Assembly: GCA_963830365.1 (NCBI GenBank)
Contig: CAWHMU010000003.1
Coordinates: forward strand, 1 to 54,322
Direction: 5' to 3'
DNA from: an uncultured Chlamydiae bacterium
Lineage (GTDB): Bacteria > Chlamydiota > Chlamydiia > Chlamydiales > Parachlamydiaceae
Length of the DNA stretch: 54,322 nt
How positions within the stretch are numbered: the first letter of the stretch is position 1; each line of letters starts with the position of its first letter. Position numbers and translations under genes: made by a program. Positions 3,861 to 41,143 of this stretch are shown here, one piece after another. The notes beneath the pieces were generated by a model. It saw only the letters and a list, made by a program, of their open reading frames with translations. It was not told where the DNA came from and made no database searches.

Positions 3861-3976
3861 GCTTGGTGACAATAGAGAGGGGGAAATACCTGATCCCATT
3901 CCGAACTCAGAAGTCAAGCCGCTCATCGCCGATGGTACTGCACACAAGAGTGTGGGAGAGTAGGTCGTCGCCAAGC
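3861..3976 (+). rRNA. rrf: 5S rRNA, copy 1 (operon copy)
   Basis: GCTTGGTGAC...GTCGCCAAGC helix I; CCGAACTC, GCCGATGGTA and GGGAGAGTAGG motifs; ~200 bp after 23S. Confidence 0.98.
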
Positions 3977-5339: not shown

Positions 5340-5454
5340 GCTTGGTGGCGTTAGAGAGGGGGAATACCTGATCCTATTCCGAACTCAGAAGTCTAGCCGC
5401 TCATCGCCGATGGTACTGCACACAAGAGTGTGGGAGAGTAGGTCGTCGCCAAGC
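5340..5454 (+). rRNA. rrf: 5S rRNA, copy 2 (diverged, outside the operon)
   Basis: Matches 3861-3976 except 5 substitutions and one 1-nt deletion in the 5' half; 3' half identical. Confidence 0.95.
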
Positions 5455-23393: not shown

Positions 23394-23988
23394 CCTGTGG
23401 TCTTTAGCTCAAGGGGCTATTTATGGTTCATCGCACAATCGCGTACCTCCCCATATGTAAACTAATGGAGGATGTTAAATAAATCATACATATACCATGA
23501 TCTAGTGAGAATTTGAGTTGGCATTGCCATACAAGAGATAGGGCACAAGCCATGAGAACATTTTTACAGCCCGATAGAGGCTATGGTATAAATGACAATA
23601 AATTTGTTTATATTATAAATTTATTGCCTTTTCCCTAAAAAACACGGATTTTTGGGAAAGGTTCAAAAGCAGGTAATACTCAAAAAATACTAAGATGTTT
23701 CCTGGCCATTCTACAATCTTGTTTTTCGTTAGTGTAACCGACATTTCTCTTTTTTAAGGCTCATCACACAAATGAGTGGTTGACTTAGGGTTCATCCAGT
23801 TATGCAGGACAAAGATGCATAGCATGACATAGGCGAAGCCCATCTCTTTGTAGCCCGTCAGCTAAGGCTTGCGAGCGCAGCGAATGCAGCCGCAGCTACG
23901 GGACAGCAAGAAAAGTGCTCTACCCCGTAGGGGTTCTTCTCTTTATAATCTATTAAGGTGGAAGTATCTAAAGAGAAGAACCCCTACC

Positions 23989-24579
23989 GAGACAATTGCA
24001 TAAGTGACAATAAAATTTTATAACATAAATTTATTACCTTTTCCCTAAAAAAACACGGATTTTTGAGAAAGGTTCAAAAGTAGGTAATACTCAAAAAATA
24101 CTAAGATGATGGCAGGATGCCAGGAAACATCTTTTTTGCCCTTTTTCTCTCATTTTGTAGCCCACACCAAGGCGGAGGAACGGAGCCGCAGGTGTGGGAA
24201 AAAATTGTAAGTGATTAACCAGGGACTGGTTCTTCTTTTTATTTTTGGTCGAGGTTAAACTTAAAGCCTTTTGAATCAAGGGTTAAAAAATGAAGAACCA
24301 GTCCCTGGTTAGTTTGTAATTCTCATTATACCCACACCTGCGGCTTCGTTCCTCCGCCTTGGTGTGGGCTACAAAATGAGAGAAAAAGGGCAAAAAAGAT
24401 GTTTCCTGGCCATTCTACAATCTTGTTTGTTCGTTAGTGTAACCGACATTTCTCTTTTTTTAAACCATGCCGATTTTTGAGTATTTTGAGCGTTCTAGGA
24501 TAGATTCTTTTCGATCCCGGATATGATTGGCTTCCAAAGAATCGCTGTATAACACGCAAAACACTTCTGCAATTGGCTC
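23989..24579. mobile_element. GAG-type MITE (~590 bp), copy 1, carrying a REP-B doublet
   Basis: TIRs GAGACAATTGCATAAGTG / CACTTCTGCAATTGGCTC; near-identical to 37630-38221; internal IR ~24118-24411. Confidence 0.85.
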
Positions 24580-24596
24580 GATAGAAGCAGATGCGT

Positions 24597-24788
24597 GTAG
24601 CCACAGGTGTCAACCTGTGGAATAAAATGTAGCATAAAGAGAGCCGTGAAGACGGCGGCAGCAATGACTAAAGGATAGTATATACTATAATAATTGCATC
24701 TAATTCAGCCTCCATCGAAATTGCTGTCGCCGTATTCACGGCTCTCTTTATACTATATTTTATTCCATAGGTTGACATCTATGGCTAC
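24597..24788. repeat. GTAG-type REPIN (inverted REP-A doublet)
   Basis: GTAG-CCACAGG-TGTCAA-CCTGTGG at 24597; inverted copy ending ...ATGGCTAC at 24788; arms extend ~70 bp inward. Confidence 0.9.
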
Positions 24789-24982
24789 ATGCTTCCACCT
24801 CTATCGAGGCTAACTAGACCTGCTGTGCTAGAATGCCGATTTGTTTCAAAGAGAACATTACAAATAGATCATTATTTCTCATATTTCAACCATCAATTAC
24901 TAAGGGTTTTTGACGAATCATCATAGTATAGACTTTCTATTTCCCATTTCAGGATGTTATGAAATCCGGCAGTTCTGTCTCA

Positions 24983-27319: not shown

Positions 27320-27570
27320 GTTTCATCCGGTTTTATAGGACCCGCCTAGAAAAGGATGCGTAGAAATGGGGAAATGTAGGTAACACATCGGAGCAGAAAT
27401 AACAGGATATTAGGATGGACAGGATGAAAGATTTAAACTTTAGTTTGACAACTTTGCGATTTACATAAGTCTTGGGCGATCATCCTATTTTTCATATCCT
27501 GATCATCGTAATATCCTGTTATTTTTGCTTGCCCTTTTCTCTTTACAAGTCCTACAAAACCGGATGAACC
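27320..27570. mobile_element. ISL3-type MITE, family b, 251 bp, 8-bp TSD CCGTTTAT
   Basis: TIRs GTTTCATCCGGTTTTATAGGAC / GTCCTACAAAACCGGATGAACC; CCGTTTAT at 27312-27319 and 27571-27578. Confidence 0.9.
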
Positions 27571-27604
27571 CCGTTTATGTGTGCTTATTATGTTATATAA
27601 AAAT

Positions 27605-28148
27605 GGTTCATCGCACAATCGCGTACCTGTCTGAGAGGATTCGTTAAAAAGACTTAATAATGGCTGGTTGGAAAACGAGAATTAACAATATATTTGTGGG
27701 GTTCTCTTTGAAACAAATCGACATTCTAGCACAGAAGATCTAGTTAGCCTCGATAGAGGCGGAAGCATGTAGCCATAGGTGTCAACCTATGGAATGAAAT
27801 GTAGCAAAAAGTGAGCTGTGAATACGGCGACAGCAACTTCGAGGGAGGTTGAATTAAATGCGATTATTACACCATATAATATCCTTTAGTCATTGCTGTC
27901 GCCGTATTCACGGCTTTGTTTCTAAACATGTGATGACCACACGCTGACGCATGTGGCTACATGCTTCCGCCTCTATCGAGGCTTTAAAAATGTTCTCATG
28001 GCTTGCGCCCTGTCGCTTATATGGCAGTACTGGCTCAACTCCTACCTTCACAGGAGCGAACATGCAATTTGTGGATTTTTATGATGCATTATTTGCAACG
28101 ACCTCGATTAATTTACATAAGGCGAGGTACGCGATTGTGCGATGAACC
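27605..28148. mobile_element. ISL3-type MITE, family a, 544 bp, 8-bp TSD ATAAAAAT, carrying a REP-A REPIN
   Basis: Perfect 24-bp TIR GGTTCATCGCACAATCGCGTACCT; ATAAAAAT at 27597-27604 and 28149-28156; GTAG REPs at 27769-27792 (+) and 27937-27960 (-). Confidence 0.93.
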
Positions 28149-35529: not shown

Positions 35530-36624
35530 TTATTTTAGTTTTGTGGCTTTGGCGGCCAGCAGGCGGACAAACTTTCGGAAAAGGTGGCGGATAAATAGAT
35601 TTCGCTCTTTCATCACCAGCTTTTGTTGGTTGCCGACCTTGACGATGATGGGGATCTCTTTAATGAAGGGGAAAGATTCATTTTTGATAGCTTGAAGGGA
35701 GTGATCGGAATGACTCAAGTTTTTTAGAAATCGATTGATTTCCTGCACGGATTGACAGCCTTGCATCATGGGGAGGTGCGCAGAGAAGTATTTATATGTA
35801 TATTTCTCTTCGTTCCACTCGCTGGGCGGTTCTTGGGCGCTGGCCTTAACTTGTTTCATGAATTGTTTGGTTCCATTGGCAATATTGCAAAAGTCGTGCA
35901 GGGTAAAGACATGGCAAAGCGTGCCGTCGTTTTGGCGTCCCTGTTTCAGGGGATAGACCGTGGCTTGGGGGAAATTTTTACAGACGACTTTGATCAGGTT
36001 TTTTAGCCAATCGATTTCGATTGGTTTTTGTGTGTCAGGGTTTATTTTGATCAGTCCCGTACTGTTGGTGATGGCAATGGTGAATTCATCGGCTGTTTTC
36101 TCAACATAAACAGGGAAAGTGTGTGGAAAGTTTAATTTCCTTCCGGAAAGGCCTTCCGGATCACACTGCTGCACAATGAAGAGGCGCTTTATATCCTTCG
36201 CTTTGGCAACTTCTGTTAGTTCAGCCAGGAAGGCGGCAAATGTCGGGCAGATGGCATACGCTTTCTTATCGCTATTTAGTAATCCCACCTCACTTAAATG
36301 ATCCAAGATCACGGCGATGCCATCGAGACTGAAAAACGTCTGCTTTTTGATTTGTTGGTCAGAAGCTCTTGCCAAATCAATGCCTAGATAGTCCTGTAAG
36401 GTAGGATACATAGTTATCACGGCTTTCAGCGCTAATTCATAGGCATCATCGGAGAATTCATTCACATTGCCGATGGTTTTCATGAAGATATCGATCAAAG
36501 AGGAGCGTTTCGCATCTGTTTCCTCTTTGGCGATGCGGATGATGTCAGCTTGTTGCCGCTTGATTGAAAGTTTCATGTCAATGATTTGGCTATCCAAATC
36601 ACCGGATTTTCTGTTCATTGTCAT
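35530..36624 (-). CDS. Hypothetical protein with CE-clan (YopJ/Ulp1-like) catalytic motif
   Basis: FPHTFPVYV...IAITNSTG...RQNDGTLCHVFTLHD gives His, Asn, Gln and Cys in CE-clan order. Confidence 0.6.
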   Translation of the reverse strand: MTMNRKSGDLDSQIIDMKLSIKRQQADIIRIAKEETDAKRSSLIDIFMKTIGNVNEFSDDAYELALKAVITMYPTLQDYLGIDLARASDQQIKKQTFFSLDGIAVILDHLSEVGLLNSDKKAYAICPTFAAFLAELTEVAKAKDIKRLFIVQQCDPEGLSGRKLNFPHTFPVYVEKTADEFTIAITNSTGLIKINPDTQKPIEIDWLKNLIKVVCKNFPQATVYPLKQGRQNDGTLCHVFTLHDFCNIANGTKQFMKQVKASAQEPPSEWNEEKYTYKYFSAHLPMMQGCQSVQEINRFLKNLSHSDHSLQAIKNESFPFIKEIPIIVKVGNQQKLVMKERNLFIRHLFRKFVRLLAAKATKLK

Positions 36625-37084
36625 TTTCCTGTGGCAGCTCTAATTCATAGAGTTTTTTTTGAGTGTTATCGATGGCCGCGAGCAGGCTGGTCATTTTGTC
36701 GACATTTCTATGGATAGAATCATAAGTCGGTGATGGTAGGGCTTGGCAGAAGTCTAGGTCGAGGTTGAGCAGCTCCATCGATAGCGGAGCCGATGTTGAC
36801 GATTTAAATTCGCTTTCTTCACCGTCACCATCTTTTGCCGGCGTGGGGCGTCCCAAGGCTCTCAGTAGTTGGGGGGCGTACATGGCGTTCTGCCTGGTCA
36901 GCTTGGGAGGCTCTGAGGGCAGGCCTGCGGCATTCAATGTAATGCTTGCAGCCAGGTCGGCGGTTTTTTGGGATGTTGATGAGCAGTTATCGGGGGAGCC
37001 TATGGGGGCGGGGTCGTCAAATTGGCCATTTAGCAGGGGAGTATGGGAACGGTTTCGTTCCAAAAAGCTAGTTGTGCTGTTCAT
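36599..37084 (-). CDS. Hypothetical Ser/Pro-rich protein, possibly the N-terminal part of 35530-36624
   Basis: ATG MNSTTS at 37084; overlaps the next ORF by 26 bp. Confidence 0.55.
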   Translation of the reverse strand: MNSTTSFLERNRSHTPLLNGQFDDPAPIGSPDNCSSTSQKTADLAASITLNAAGLPSEPPKLTRQNAMYAPQLLRALGRPTPAKDGDGEESEFKSSTSAPLSMELLNLDLDFCQALPSPTYDSIHRNVDKMTSLLAAIDNTQKKLYELELPQENDNEQKIR

Positions 37085-37325
37085 AAAGTCGCCTTGGTTT
37101 TTAAACAAGAGTAATTTAAAGCATAAAATCTTGTTACTTAATCTGCAATATCTTGTTATGAAACAGCCGGGGCTTTGGCGCAGTCCAATATGTCAAATTC
37201 TCACTAGATCATGGTATATGGTTGTTAGCCGGAAATAGCGGCGGCAGCATGTAGCCACAGGCGTAAGCCTGTGGTTGTGCCACCAAAGACGCCAAGCCGT
37301 GAATACGGCGGCAGCAGTATAATCA

Positions 37326-38300
37326 GGCTCATCCGGTTTTGTAGGACTCATAATCGGCCATTGGTTTAATTTCGTCCGAAAAAGAAAAAAGAAGAACCCC
37401 TTCCGGGGTTTATATGAGGACATTCTTGTTCCCATACCTGCGGCTCCGCTGCCGCTCCACCTTGGTATGGGCTACAGAATGAGAGAAAAAAGGGCAAAAA
37501 AGATAGCATCCACGCCCTCTTTTTTGTCCTTTTTCTCTCATTCTGTAGCCCGTAGCCAAGGCTCGCGAGCAGCAGCGAAGACGAGCCACAGCTACGGGAA
37601 ACGCAATGTATATGAAGTTAACCCCGGATGAGATAATTGCATAAGTGACAATAAATTTGTTTATAACATAAATTTATTGCCTTTTCCCTAAAAAAACACG
37701 GATTTTTGGGAAAGGTTCAAAAGCAGGTAATACTCAAAAAATTTAAGATGATGGTAGGATGCCAGGAAACATCTTTTTTGCCCTTTTTCTCTCATTATGT
37801 AGCCCACACCAAGGCGGAGGAACGGAGCCGCAGGTGTGGGAAAAAATTGTAAGTGATTAACCAGGGACTGGTTCTTCTTTTTATCTTTGGTCGAGATTAA
37901 ACTTAAAGCCTTTTGAATCAAGAGCAAAAAAAAGAAGAACCAGTCCCTGGTTAGTTTATAATTCTCATTATACCCACACCTGCGGCTTCGTTCCTCCGCC
38001 TTGGTGTGGGCTACATAATGAGAGAAAAAGGGCAAAAAAGATGTTTCTTGGCCATTCTACAATCTTGTTTTTTCGTTAGTGTAACCGACATTTCTCTTTT
38101 TTTAAACCATGCCGATTTTTGAGTATTTTGAGTGTTCTAGGATAGATTCTTTTCGATCCCGGATATGATTGGCTTCCAAAGAATCGCTGTATAACACACA
38201 AAACACTTATGCAATTGCCTCGGATGGGGTTCCTCTTTTTCATTTTTCGGACAAAATTAAACCAATGGCCGATAACGAGTCCTACAAAACCGGATGAGCC
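37326..38300. mobile_element. ISL3-type MITE, family b, 8-bp TSD TATAATCA
   Basis: TIRs GGCTCATCCGGTTTTGTAGGACTC / GAGTCCTACAAAACCGGATGAGCC; TATAATCA at 37318-37325 and 38301-38308. Confidence 0.93.
37630..38221. mobile_element. GAG-type MITE, copy 2, 4-bp TSD GGAT
   Basis: TIRs GAGATAATTGCATAAGTG / CACTTATGCAATTGCCTC; GGAT at 37626-37629 and 38222-38225; REP-B doublet at 37799-38014. Confidence 0.9.
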
Positions 38301-38906
38301 TATAATCATTGCATCTAATTCAGCTTCCATCGAAATTGCTGTCGCCGTATTCATGGCTCTCTTTATACTACAATTTATTCCATAGGTTGACACCTATGGC
38401 TACATGCTTACGCCTCTATCGAGGCTAACTAGACCTTCTGTGCTAGAATGCCGATTTGTTTCAAAGAGAACATTACAAATAGATCATTACTTCTCATATT
38501 TCAACCATCAATGACTAAGGCTTTTTGACGAATCATCGGCGGTATTTTTGCAACTCTCTCATTTGTGCGATGAACCGAATGTTTTCGCCACGAGATGACG
38601 ATGAAGTTTTGTCTGTTTTTATCCTGACCATCCTAAAATCCTGTTCCTTTGTCCTTTTTCCTTTTGCCTTTTGCCTCTTTCCTTTATCTTTTCTGTTGGA
38701 GGCTTTTGCAAAACTGGTAAAACAGCGGGATTTTGAGAGGTTTTTCGATGGGAGGCAAAAAATATAAAGACCGTAAACAGCTAAGTGTTATCTTTTTATG
38801 TTTTTTTCTCCCAGCGAAAAAGATCCAAAAGACCGCCTTTTCCTAAATATTGCAAATGCCTCTTAGCTAGAACTTTTCCGTTACCAATTTCCAAAGAGTG
38901 TGGGTT

Positions 38907-40355
38907 ATGTCTGACAATGCTGCCAATATAAAAATCGCTCCCAATTCCAAAGAGTCGGAAATGATGGTGCTGGGGTGTATGCTGACAAGCATCAATGGTT
39001 TGAATATCGCGGCCGATGCGCTGGATGATGCCGACTTCTACTATACGGAGCATAAAATCGTCTTCCAGGCGCTTAAATCGGCCTACAAGCAGGACAAGCC
39101 GGCCGATGTGCATTTGATTTGCGAGGAGCTGAAGCGCCAGGACAGGCTTAAGTCTGTCGGCGGAGCGGGTTACGTCACCACTTTGGCGCAGTATGCCGGC
39201 ACGTCGGCCTATGTGGAAGAATATGTGTCCATCGTGCGCGAAAAGGCCATCTTGCGCAGTATGATCCATGCCGCCCAGATCGTTGAGAAGAAGGCTCTGA
39301 ACGCGCCTGACAATGTTTTTGATACGCTCGATGAAGCCCAGCAGCTATTCTTTCAGATCAGCCAGGCGGCGCACCCTTCCAATGGCAAGCTGATCAGCGA
39401 GATCCTCTCGGGGGTGAAGGCGGAGTCGGCCACTTCCTTCCTGAAGGAGTTGCAGGAGAGGCAGGAAAGTTTCCAGCTTAAGGGTCCGGAAGATTTAGGC
39501 ATCACCGGCATTGTGAGCCATTTCAAAGACCTCGATAAGATGATCAATGGCTTGAACAACTCCAACCTGATGATTCTGGCCGCCCGTCCGGCCATGGGTA
39601 AGACAGCTTTTGCCCTTAACGTGGCGGAAAATATCTGCTTTAAAAATAATATCCCCGTGGGGGTGTTCTCGCTGGAGATGAGTGCCGACCAGCTGGTGCA
39701 TCGTATCATCTGCTCCCAGTCGGAAGTGCAGTCGGACAAAATAAAATCCGGCAATATCAACGGGGTCGAATTTCAGCGCATCGTAGCGGCCGTCAACCAG
39801 ATGCAAAATAGCGTGATGATCATCGATGACCAGCCGGGTCTTAAGGTCAGCGATTTGCGCGCGCGGGCGCGGCGCATGAAGGAGATTTATGGCATCGGCT
39901 TTCTGGTGATCGACTACCTGCAGTTGATTTCAGGTTCCGGATCGCGTTCCCAGGACAACCGGCAGAGCGAGATTTCAGAGATTTCGCGCATGCTCAAGAA
40001 CTTGGCGCGCGAGCTCAACATCCCGGTGTTATGTCTATCGCAGCTGTCGCGTAAGGTTGAAGAGCGCCCCGGGCACCGTCCGATGATGAGCGATTTAAGG
40101 GAGAGCGGCAGCATCGAGCAGGATAGCGATTTGGTGATGTTCATGCTGCGCCGCGAGTACTATGATCCGATGGATAAGCCCGGCATGGCAGAACTTATCA
40201 TAGCCAAAAACAGGCATGGCGGCATCGGCATAGTGAATCTGACCTACCGCAAGGAAATCGTCCAGTTTGCCGACTACACGCCCATGACCTATGATGGGGG
40301 GTCAGCCGCCCAGGATCGGGAGGCGGAGCAGGCCTTCAGTCATTTCACGCCCTGA
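38907..40355 (+). CDS. dnaB: Replicative DNA helicase DnaB
   Basis: ILAARPAMGKTAFALN, FSLEMS, VIDYLQL, LSQLSR, SDLRESGSIEQDSD, IAKNRHG; no intein. Confidence 0.98.
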   Translation: MSDNAANIKIAPNSKESEMMVLGCMLTSINGLNIAADALDDADFYYTEHKIVFQALKSAYKQDKPADVHLICEELKRQDRLKSVGGAGYVTTLAQYAGTSAYVEEYVSIVREKAILRSMIHAAQIVEKKALNAPDNVFDTLDEAQQLFFQISQAAHPSNGKLISEILSGVKAESATSFLKELQERQESFQLKGPEDLGITGIVSHFKDLDKMINGLNNSNLMILAARPAMGKTAFALNVAENICFKNNIPVGVFSLEMSADQLVHRIICSQSEVQSDKIKSGNINGVEFQRIVAAVNQMQNSVMIIDDQPGLKVSDLRARARRMKEIYGIGFLVIDYLQLISGSGSRSQDNRQSEISEISRMLKNLARELNIPVLCLSQLSRKVEERPGHRPMMSDLRESGSIEQDSDLVMFMLRREYYDPMDKPGMAELIIAKNRHGGIGIVNLTYRKEIVQFADYTPMTYDGGSAAQDREAEQAFSHFTP

Positions 40356-40384: not shown

Positions 40385-41143
40385 AAAAATTATAACGCCC
40401 CCTTGGGGCTGGATTGTGTTTGTGGCACATCCCACGGTTTGCGTCTTTGACGCTACACCATGGGCTACAAATATTGTCGCTCCGTTGGAGCTTAGCAAAG
40501 CTGTTATAAATTTTGGTTCATCACACAAACGAGTACCTCGTCTTATATAAATTATAGATTCGTTCTTTTAAGCATGGTTGTTAGCCGCGAATAGCGGCGG
40601 CAGCATGTAGCCACAGGCGTAAGCCTGTGGTTGTGCCACCAAAGATACCAAGCCGTGATAACGGCGACAGCAATGACTAAGGATATTATCTGCTATCATA
40701 ACTGTATCGGATTCAACTTCCCTCGAAGTTGCTGTCGCCGTATTCACGGCTCACCTTTTGCTACATTTCATACCATAGGTTGACACCTATGGCTACATGC
40801 TTCCGCCTCTATCGAGGCTAACCAGACCTTCTGTGCTAGAATGTCGATTTGTTTCAAAGAGAACTTTACAAATATATTTTTAATTCTCGTTTTCCAACCA
40901 GCCATTATTGAGTCTTTTTAACGAATCCTCTAGGACAGGTACGCGATTGTGCGATGAACCTAAATTTTTTAGCATTTAAAACACCTCTTACGCCCTTAAC
41001 CTTTAAAAAATAAATTCCGCGAACTTTGGTTGCTGAGCTCCGTAGGAGTGGCCATATTTGTAGCCCATGGTGTAGCGTCGAAGACGCAAATCGTGGGATG
41101 TGCCAAAAAAACAATCCAGCCCCAAAGGGGCGTTATAATTTTT
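40385..41143. repeat. REP-C inverted doublet (~113-bp arms) interrupted by a MITE
   Basis: 40385-40498 is the reverse complement of 41029-41143 with a few mismatches; GTAGCCCATGG motif at 41060. Confidence 0.88.
40515..40960. mobile_element. ISL3-type MITE, family a, 446 bp, 8-bp TSD TAAATTTT, carrying a REP-A REPIN
   Basis: TIRs GGTTCATCACACAAACGAGTACCT / AGGTACGCGATTGTGCGATGAACC; TAAATTTT at 40507-40514 and 40961-40968; REPs at 40607 (+) and 40773-40796 (-). Confidence 0.92.

Follow-up and report, generated by a model that had tools for sequence, protein, structure and literature searches.

Two ISL3-type MITEs and an IS1182-like MITE nested beside dnaB in an uncultured chlamydia

Introduction

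How does a single intergenic gap come to hold element within element within element? The question is raised by the DNA in front of dnaB in an uncultured member of the Parachlamydiaceae, whose assembly (2.73 Mb in 48 contigs, 82% complete) is labelled G000 here, its contigs being numbered with a C. The window, that is, the whole stretch of 54,322 nucleotides that was analysed, is contig C3, and a stack of repeats occupies most of the 1789-bp gap between an unassigned ORF and dnaB. An earlier note, made from the letters alone, had taken the stack for six nested insertions and for the best candidate of an undescribed system, in which several recombinase systems would insert preferentially into each other's hairpins.

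Several ingredients of such a stack are familiar. Elements of the ISL3 family have GG ends and 8-bp AT-rich target site duplications (TSDs). REPs, REPINs and TIRtrons are defined in the accessible portions of PMC3733652, PMC3116915, PMC3184786 and bioRxiv 10.1101/2021.07.10.451892. Tobes and Pareja (2006; PMC1525189), in the part of the text available, place ISs of five families at fixed REP positions; palindrome or hairpin targeting by IS1182-family members is described in the available parts of PMC4923244 and PMC5678879; and the accessible text of PMC3119063 counts 192 element-in-element events in Haloquadratum, most of them into Y1-related palindromes. In the available portion of PMC6199540, IS231 targeting appears only in reference titles, and a review of MITEs (PMC10969869) contains neither 'nested' nor 'ISL3'.

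Results

Three mobile units in the nest

The features of the locus are as follows (positions are those of the window):

36599-37108, minus strand: left neighbour, an ORF of 169 aa that found no match in a family search
37158-37218, minus strand: one truncated arm of family D in place of the left end of MITE a, matching a complete D copy at 98% across 51 nt
37218-37317, plus strand: outer MITE a, left part, 93% a446-type; includes the left REP-A arm, whose GTAG is at 37251
37318-37325, plus strand: left 8-bp target duplication of MITE b, TATAATCA
37326-37629, plus strand: left part of ISL3-type MITE b, with an ISL3-like end
37630-38221, plus strand: G592, a 592-bp GAG...CTC MITE of the IS1182-like element, with the 4-bp TSD GGAT
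37771-38042, no strand assigned: REP-B REPIN carried by G592, arms at about 37771-37885 and 37928-38042
38222-38300, plus strand: right portion of b with its ISL3-like end, preceded by the second GGAT
38301-38308, plus strand: right TSD copy of b, TATAATCA
38309-38576, plus strand: right part of outer ISL3-type MITE a (a547-type, 97%), with an ISL3-like end at 38576
38898-40355, plus strand: right neighbour dnaB, above the cut-off of NCBIfam PRK06321, which we take to be the chlamydial dnaB model

The nest consists of three mobile units: the ISL3-type MITE a encloses the ISL3-type MITE b, which encloses the GAG-ended MITE G592. The junctions of b (37326-38300) and of G592 (37630-38221) are real, and both TSDs claimed for them are exact: TATAATCA at 37318-37325 and 38301-38308, and GGAT at 37626-37629 and 38222-38225. 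Taking the layers out in silico, a check that the earlier note had proposed, restores the empty alleles. Removal of 37630-38225 (G592 and one TSD copy) leaves a 379-bp empty b that is identical at 375 of 379 positions to a copy on C42 minus that copy's own two inserts; removal of b leaves an a547-type MITE with 21 bp missing beside the TSD. The stack appears to be free of transposase genes, as had been stated: the ORF listing contains only two ORFs of at least 100 aa (115 and 105 aa), both running across repeats and neither resembling a transposase.

The other three of the six supposed insertions are fixed parts of the units that carry them. The GTAG/CTAC tags of the two REPINs are where they had been placed (37251/38403 and 37799/38014), but the a539 MITE has the REP-A REPIN built in, its 12 TSD-verified copies clustering together, and in the same way the REP-B REPIN is built into G592 (6 copies). 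The inner inverted repeat is real (25 nt, 100%, 37858-37882/37929-37953) but forms the second hairpin of each REP-B arm; it is also present in the arms that flank a Y1 gene at C27:48424-48891, and was rejected as an element of its own. Because the REPINs and the inner repeat are fixed parts, the order of events at this site reduces to a, b and G. That a preceded b can be read from the sequence, whereas G may have entered b before or after b arrived here.

The outer unit is a mosaic, its left arm being of a446 type and its right part of a547 type, and it ends at 38576 rather than at 38577, as first given. Its right REP-A arm spans 38335-38426 and holds a vacant GCCTC-N4-GAGGC target near 38413. 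The left end of a is absent here, and the 8-mer of its right flank has no match in 36600-37330. The D arm found in its place belongs to a 165-bp, fully palindromic, MITE-like element with TATACC ends, which is present in 16 of the 73 searched genomes of the family. As to a partner for D, none of three IS630-like genes checked in the source genome has D ends nearby, and the ORFs near nine D-like loci in relatives encode no recognisable transposase in the first 60 residues, which were inspected. The source genome contains 54 D ends, more than half of them apparently lone arms truncated at 25-60 nt.

Inside b, the left part carries a vacant target palindrome (37395-37410), a tail-to-tail REP-B/REP-B' pair and, at 37620-37629, the left half of the palindrome that G592 entered. 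All six b379 copies contain a G element. The hairpin entered here is occupied in the opposite orientation by the autonomous G element on C7, and a second b, at C45:55065, holds G592 at the same base. The G at C45:55065 carries a variant shared with other copies, for which reason we tentatively lean towards separate hits at the two sites.

Searches for functional signals returned little. No Rfam family reached its gathering score on the stack, and scanning by E-value turned up nothing beyond hairpin matches below threshold. Promoter-like sites are about as common as chance predicts (3, with 3.5 expected), and terminator-like sites (6 against 2.2 expected) correspond to the REP hairpins. None of the 40 relatives searched, all of other genera, shows the pre-insertion locus, matches there being dnaB or short repeat arms. 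Elsewhere in the window, just beyond the stack (38610-38650), there is one arm of a further short repeat family, which is related to b251 MITE cargo; a C45-type REP arm adjoins a446 at 40398-40960 and b251 adjoins a544 at 27320-28148, each partner with its own TSD. Two 5S rRNA genes (3862-3976 and 5341-5454) follow the 23S gene, 1.4 kb apart and with ORFs between them.

A second stack in the same window

The earlier note had pointed to a similar stack near 23425-24922, and it is indeed there:

23425-24924, plus strand: second stack, a539 enclosing G299, enclosing a410, enclosing G592

G299 starts at 23577, a410 lies reversed at 23758-23987 and G592 occupies 23989-24579. The a539 layer bears a 26-nt D patch at 23491-23516 and lacks its right tip; neither the remainder of a410 nor one of the G right halves is present. 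The outer G has the TSD GATA at both far ends while the half between them is gone, probably through recombination between G right halves.

REPINs as probable cargo of MITEs

REP-B arms, 74-89% identical, flank the Y1 transposase gene at C27:48424-48891, whose protein matches the NCBIfam IS200 model (74 bits) and not REP_Tyr_transpos. For REP-A, no Y1 gene with such arms was found around the nine Y1 matches of the source genome (82% complete) and 22 matches in relatives, apart from one single match of 39 nt. Of 161 REP-A arms, 97 lie in or adjoin ISL3 MITE bodies; these arms, about 60% of the total, would thus spread as cargo. The remaining 64 are classed as free, and free inverted GTAG doublets exist (for example C8:27128-27324 and C23:4257-4451). 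REP-A REPINs occur in MITEs of two different ISL3 end types.

An internal inverted repeat (score at least 20) is present in 11 of the 13 ISL3-ended MITE types picked for this comparison. Among random windows drawn from intergenic DNA outside ISL3 elements, the proportion is 13% for a length of 250 bp and 33% for 450 bp; the MITE types share cargo and so are not independent. This exceeds the prediction of passive capture and favours part of the earlier note's idea. Capture of a doublet by two ends, insertion of REPINs into MITEs and better amplification of hairpin-bearing MITEs could each account for this excess. Cargo-free bodies are rare, with short forms in 1 of 39 a539 pairs, 1 of 17 b251 and 2 of 8 G. 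Two copies of G299, which has no REPIN, coexist with the six REPIN-bearing copies of G592, although G299 could equally be a G592 deleted between short AAGATG repeats.

Other Y1 genes and arms were seen along the way. At C45:169616-170494 (L004) a 292-aa Y1 protein with two tandem Y1 domains is encoded between doubled GTAG REP arms. Long Y1 transposases (318-345 aa) with flanking terminal repeats lie at C20:43501-44538, C20:48480-49517, C28:29731-30687 and C17:27407-28384, and the a239 MITE family carries arms like those at C20 as its cargo. At C18:12-1366 and C46:60241-61249, REP-A units are arrayed in tandem with periods of about 67 bp and about 300 bp.

The ISL3 layers nest at chance level

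The partner families that had been guessed are all present in the source genome, namely two ISL3 types, an IS1182-like element and a Y1 transposase. The two ISL3 proteins, of 410 and 412 aa, both score above the cut-off of NCBIfam NF033550. The end of a matches that of the 410-aa element at 17 of the first 19 bases, and the end of b matches that of the 412-aa element over about 11 terminal bases only; judging by these shared ends, the resident ISL3 transposases may mobilise a and b in trans. Genome-wide, 402 ISL3-type ends were collected, 192 of which could be paired by an 8-bp TSD (at most one mismatch) into 96 elements, the 210 unpaired ends being excluded. The TSD has at least six A/T in 77 of these 96 pairs, which include b at the stack.

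Repeats lie on both sides of 25 of the 96 insertions, where AT-matched intergenic positions would predict 27.2 (P=0.73). This null is generous because it is based on present-day repeat content; 13 insertions have one repeated flank and 58 have none, and 7 of the 25 nested insertions share one site copied as a composite. Only 1 of the 96 rebuilt sites lies at a hairpin centre, compared with 80 of 3000 random positions, and hairpin targeting by ISL3 was rejected. An ISL3 element also sits inside its own copy at C42:112030-114691, both 8-bp TSDs intact. Sequence with at least three other copies makes up about 35% of non-coding DNA genome-wide (genes approximated by long ORFs), so stacks are to be expected.

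G elements sit in REP palindromes

The autonomous G element is 1463 bp long and GAG-ended (C1:1-1463), with pieces on C7, C28, C34, C45 and C46, and shares its ends with the G MITEs. Its transposase (387 aa) has the Pfam domains DUF772 and DDE_Tnp_1 and shows 38-39% identity, across 96-98% of its length, with proteins that are annotated IS1182/ISUnCu17, an annotation carried by 9 of 12 plasmid records with near-full coverage. Against the NCBIfam IS1182 model NF033551 (488 positions) it scores 72.8 bits, below the cut-off of 270, and is therefore labelled IS1182-like. GAG ends and a 4-bp TSD were found in two of four IS1182/ISUnCu17-annotated regions examined (L103, L104). In the source genome an exact 4-bp TSD brackets 11 of 12 same-contig G pairs. 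Three copies (C34:46226, C45:55368 and position 23989 of the window) have unmatched flanks, which could reflect recombination or misassembly. Five of the six G592 copies are within 0-4 differences.

Where, then, does G insert? Of 40 BLAST-supported G ends in the source genome (14 motif-only rows were left out), 39 have a readable flank, and 38 of these abut REP-arm palindromes of the form CYC-N4-GRG: 26 are ACCC-type, in REP-B/B' arms, and 12 are GCCTC-type, in REP-A arms. Position -7 is C in 37 of the 39 ends, -6 is C or T in all 39 and -5 is C in 37. A perfect stem of 5-7 bp is restored at nine of the 12 sites that could be paired, and at 16 junctions the tip and TSD of the inserted G rebuild a target-like palindrome. 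A fixed REP point and a broken REP that can be rebuilt, the type 1 pattern of REP-targeting ISs in the available text of PMC1525189, are thus seen for G in two arm families. Because composites are copied whole, the sites are not independent; counted by hand, host site, G type and orientation combine in roughly 20 different ways. Outside genes, 76-92% of motif occurrences, depending on stringency, lie in repeats, so the motif alone largely explains the bias of G. Both the idea that the recombinase systems prefer each other's hairpins and the suspicion of genome-wide nesting beyond chance thus hold for G only, and fail for ISL3. A 473-aa DDE transposase gene in a REP-A stem at C38:47676-49097, apparently in tandem copies, is possibly a second REP-associated IS.

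Relatives of the G element

Close homologues of the G transposase that have a named source belong to Parachlamydiaceae or other Chlamydiae, and 4 of 72 other genomes of the family have G homologues. In genome G067 (L046-L057, 61% identity), 11 of 11 copies occupy an identical position, to the base, in a single repeat; both orientations are found, and the TSD is 5 bp as judged by eye. The stem of that target differs in sequence from the targets of the source genome; 254 free exact copies of it exist, and the arm flanks a Y1 gene in L153. The repeat itself (L133-L144) is an arm of REP type; its outer palindrome recurs exactly at least 254 times, and another conserved repeat often stands before the arm. 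In genomes G056 and G006, copies are mostly beside similar C-run palindromes, the exceptions being a 46%-identical paralogue in G056 and one end in G006. In 21 of 22 metagenome loci examined, CC directly precedes the 4-bp duplication at 22 of 26 readable ends, as read by eye; four ends with less than 10 nt of flank and three secondary matches were left out, and three loci had no end. Some metagenome targets are short tandem repeats, not REP arms, and the proteobacterial homologues with readable flanks (L103, L104) are not in C-run palindromes. That G is found almost only in small REP palindromes is likely a target preference, common to relatives in other environmental chlamydiae.

Discussion

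Taken together, the stack most probably represents three non-autonomous elements, likely mobilised in trans by enzymes from other loci of the source genome: two ISL3-type MITEs, which enter AT-rich intergenic DNA and nest no more often than by chance, and an IS1182-like MITE that is almost confined to short palindromes in REP-type arms. MITEs a and b would have formed around REPIN-type doublets and amplified them as cargo. MITE b would then have entered the AT-rich spacer of a, 21 bp being lost alongside. The G transposase is predicted to cut with a 4-bp stagger in a symmetric (A/G)(A/C)CYC-N4-GRG site that is abundant in REP arms. These arms supply G sites in bulk, so every b copy would deliver two ready targets, and stacks could grow; later recombination and deletion may have trimmed the outer layer.

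Could the layers instead be seeking each other out, with REPINs homing on MITEs and ISL3 elements on repeats, in self-reinforcing safe-harbour hubs? The inverted doublet in 11 of 13 MITE types, the presence of REP-A REPINs behind two ISL3 end types, the coexistence of G299 and G592 and the alternation of a and G in the second stack all fit such a cycle. However, its ISL3 arm runs at chance, the REPINs in MITEs trace to few founder events, G299 has an equally good origin by deletion and 64 of 161 REP-A arms are classed as free, and we regard reciprocal targeting as unlikely. The opposite extreme, in which no element targets anything and selection merely purges random insertions outside repeats, can draw on the rarity of gene insertions in all families and on the repeats that fill about 35% of intergenic DNA. 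It suits the ISL3 layers but is contradicted for G, which returns repeatedly to the same base; moreover, the same selection leaves 58 of 96 ISL3 insertions in unique DNA against 1 of 39 G ends, so that for the stack as a whole this explanation is barely credible. An assembly chimera of similar repeats is very improbable as well, even in a 48-contig, 82% complete assembly whose contigs break at these elements, with a mosaic outer a and three other G copies with unmatched flanks. Against it, both TSD pairs are exact, the TSD of b is unique among the 96 pairs, the G592 copy in the stack has two private substitutions, and the same IS-in-arm layout is found on a 3.1-Mb contig of another genus.

A narrower alternative concerns only how the G transposase finds its site: it might recognise an extruded hairpin, that is, a structure and not a sequence, as proposed for IS1272. 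Perfect stems at 9 of 12 paired sites, the different stem sequence of the G067 target and the palindrome targeting reported in the available parts of PMC4923244 and PMC5678879 for the IS1182 family speak for this. Yet by hand tally about 70 hairpins of the same shape, AGCCCC-N3-GGGGCG, have no G insertion, whereas about 17 of 43 ACCCC-type sites are occupied, and where the loop is 3 nt the TSD does not equal the loop but stays at 4 bp and slides along the C run. For these two reasons the transposase probably reads sequence in double-stranded DNA, and recognition of a hairpin appears doubtful, if conceivable.

How much of this is new? In their likeness to REP-targeting ISs (IS1397, ISKpn1, IS621, ISPsy8, ISPpu9/10, ISRm22 and IS1106, all or nearly all copies of which lie at a fixed point of the REP palindrome), G elements join a group treated in the accessible text of PMC1525189. 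ISPsy8 and ISRm22 are described there as inserting at the symmetry axis with short direct repeats; hybrid flanks from recombination occur in that group too, and the unmatched flanks of three G copies may be of that kind. The families in that part of the list (IS3, IS110, IS4, IS256 and IS5) are from Proteobacteria, whereas G is IS1182-like and from Chlamydiae; unlike those ISs as there described, G has its own MITEs, and its target arms ride in other MITEs. With the IS1182 family, in particular its short ISUnCu17-like members, G shares DUF772 and DDE_Tnp_1, GAG tips and a 4-bp TSD, but its transposase falls below the family HMM cut-off, and IS1272, unlike G, removes the stem-loop that it targets and leaves no TSD. 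The Haloquadratum SMR-A/MGE conglomerates, according to the available text of PMC3119063, likewise arise by non-autonomous elements entering palindromes of Y1/IS605-related elements; SMR-A is given there without TSD or known transposase, whereas for G a partner transposase and a target consensus can be identified. As in the GTAG REPs, REPINs, REPtrons and TIRtrons of the accessible parts of PMC3733652 and PMC3116915, the palindromes here are GTAG-tagged, form inverted doublets and, for REP-B, flank a Y1 gene, but their arms are long (90-115 bp, two hairpins) and the flanked Y1 scores as IS200-like, not as RAYT, in NCBIfam. MITEs a and b resemble ISL3-derived MITEs in sharing GG ends with the resident ISL3 and in their 8-bp AT-rich TSDs, whereas inside they have for the most part nothing in common with the ISL3 element and typically hold a repeat doublet. 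A search of the published literature, with ISfinder and supplements lying outside it so that an entry may be missed, found no description of the IS1182-like clade of G, nor of ISL3 MITEs with REPINs inside. Still, IS targeting of REPs and the nesting of elements in Y1 palindromes are already published, on the available text of PMC1525189 and PMC3119063, and the label of an undescribed system has to be withdrawn: this nest of three mobile layers, with a single targeting system, does not make a new class.

A more far-reaching relay is possible, though we offer it tentatively. In it, a chlamydial IS1182-like clade would have specialised on the outer palindromes of Y1-associated REP arms; its GRG half-site would mirror its own GAG tip, so that insertions rebuild target-like junctions; and with ISL3 MITEs built around REPINs above chance, DDE transposases rather than RAYTs would spread most REPINs and sow the targets of a third element.

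The list of REP-targeting ISs gains an IS1182-like clade and a new phylum. The target consensus of G is short and testable and has natural variants in other genera, making it useful for the study of symmetric-target choice by DDE transposases. Finally, REPIN copy number can be driven by hitchhiking in ISL3 MITEs, as the 97 of 161 REP-A arms illustrate, and such hitchhiking would be a confounder in models where RAYTs are assumed to replicate the REPIN populations.
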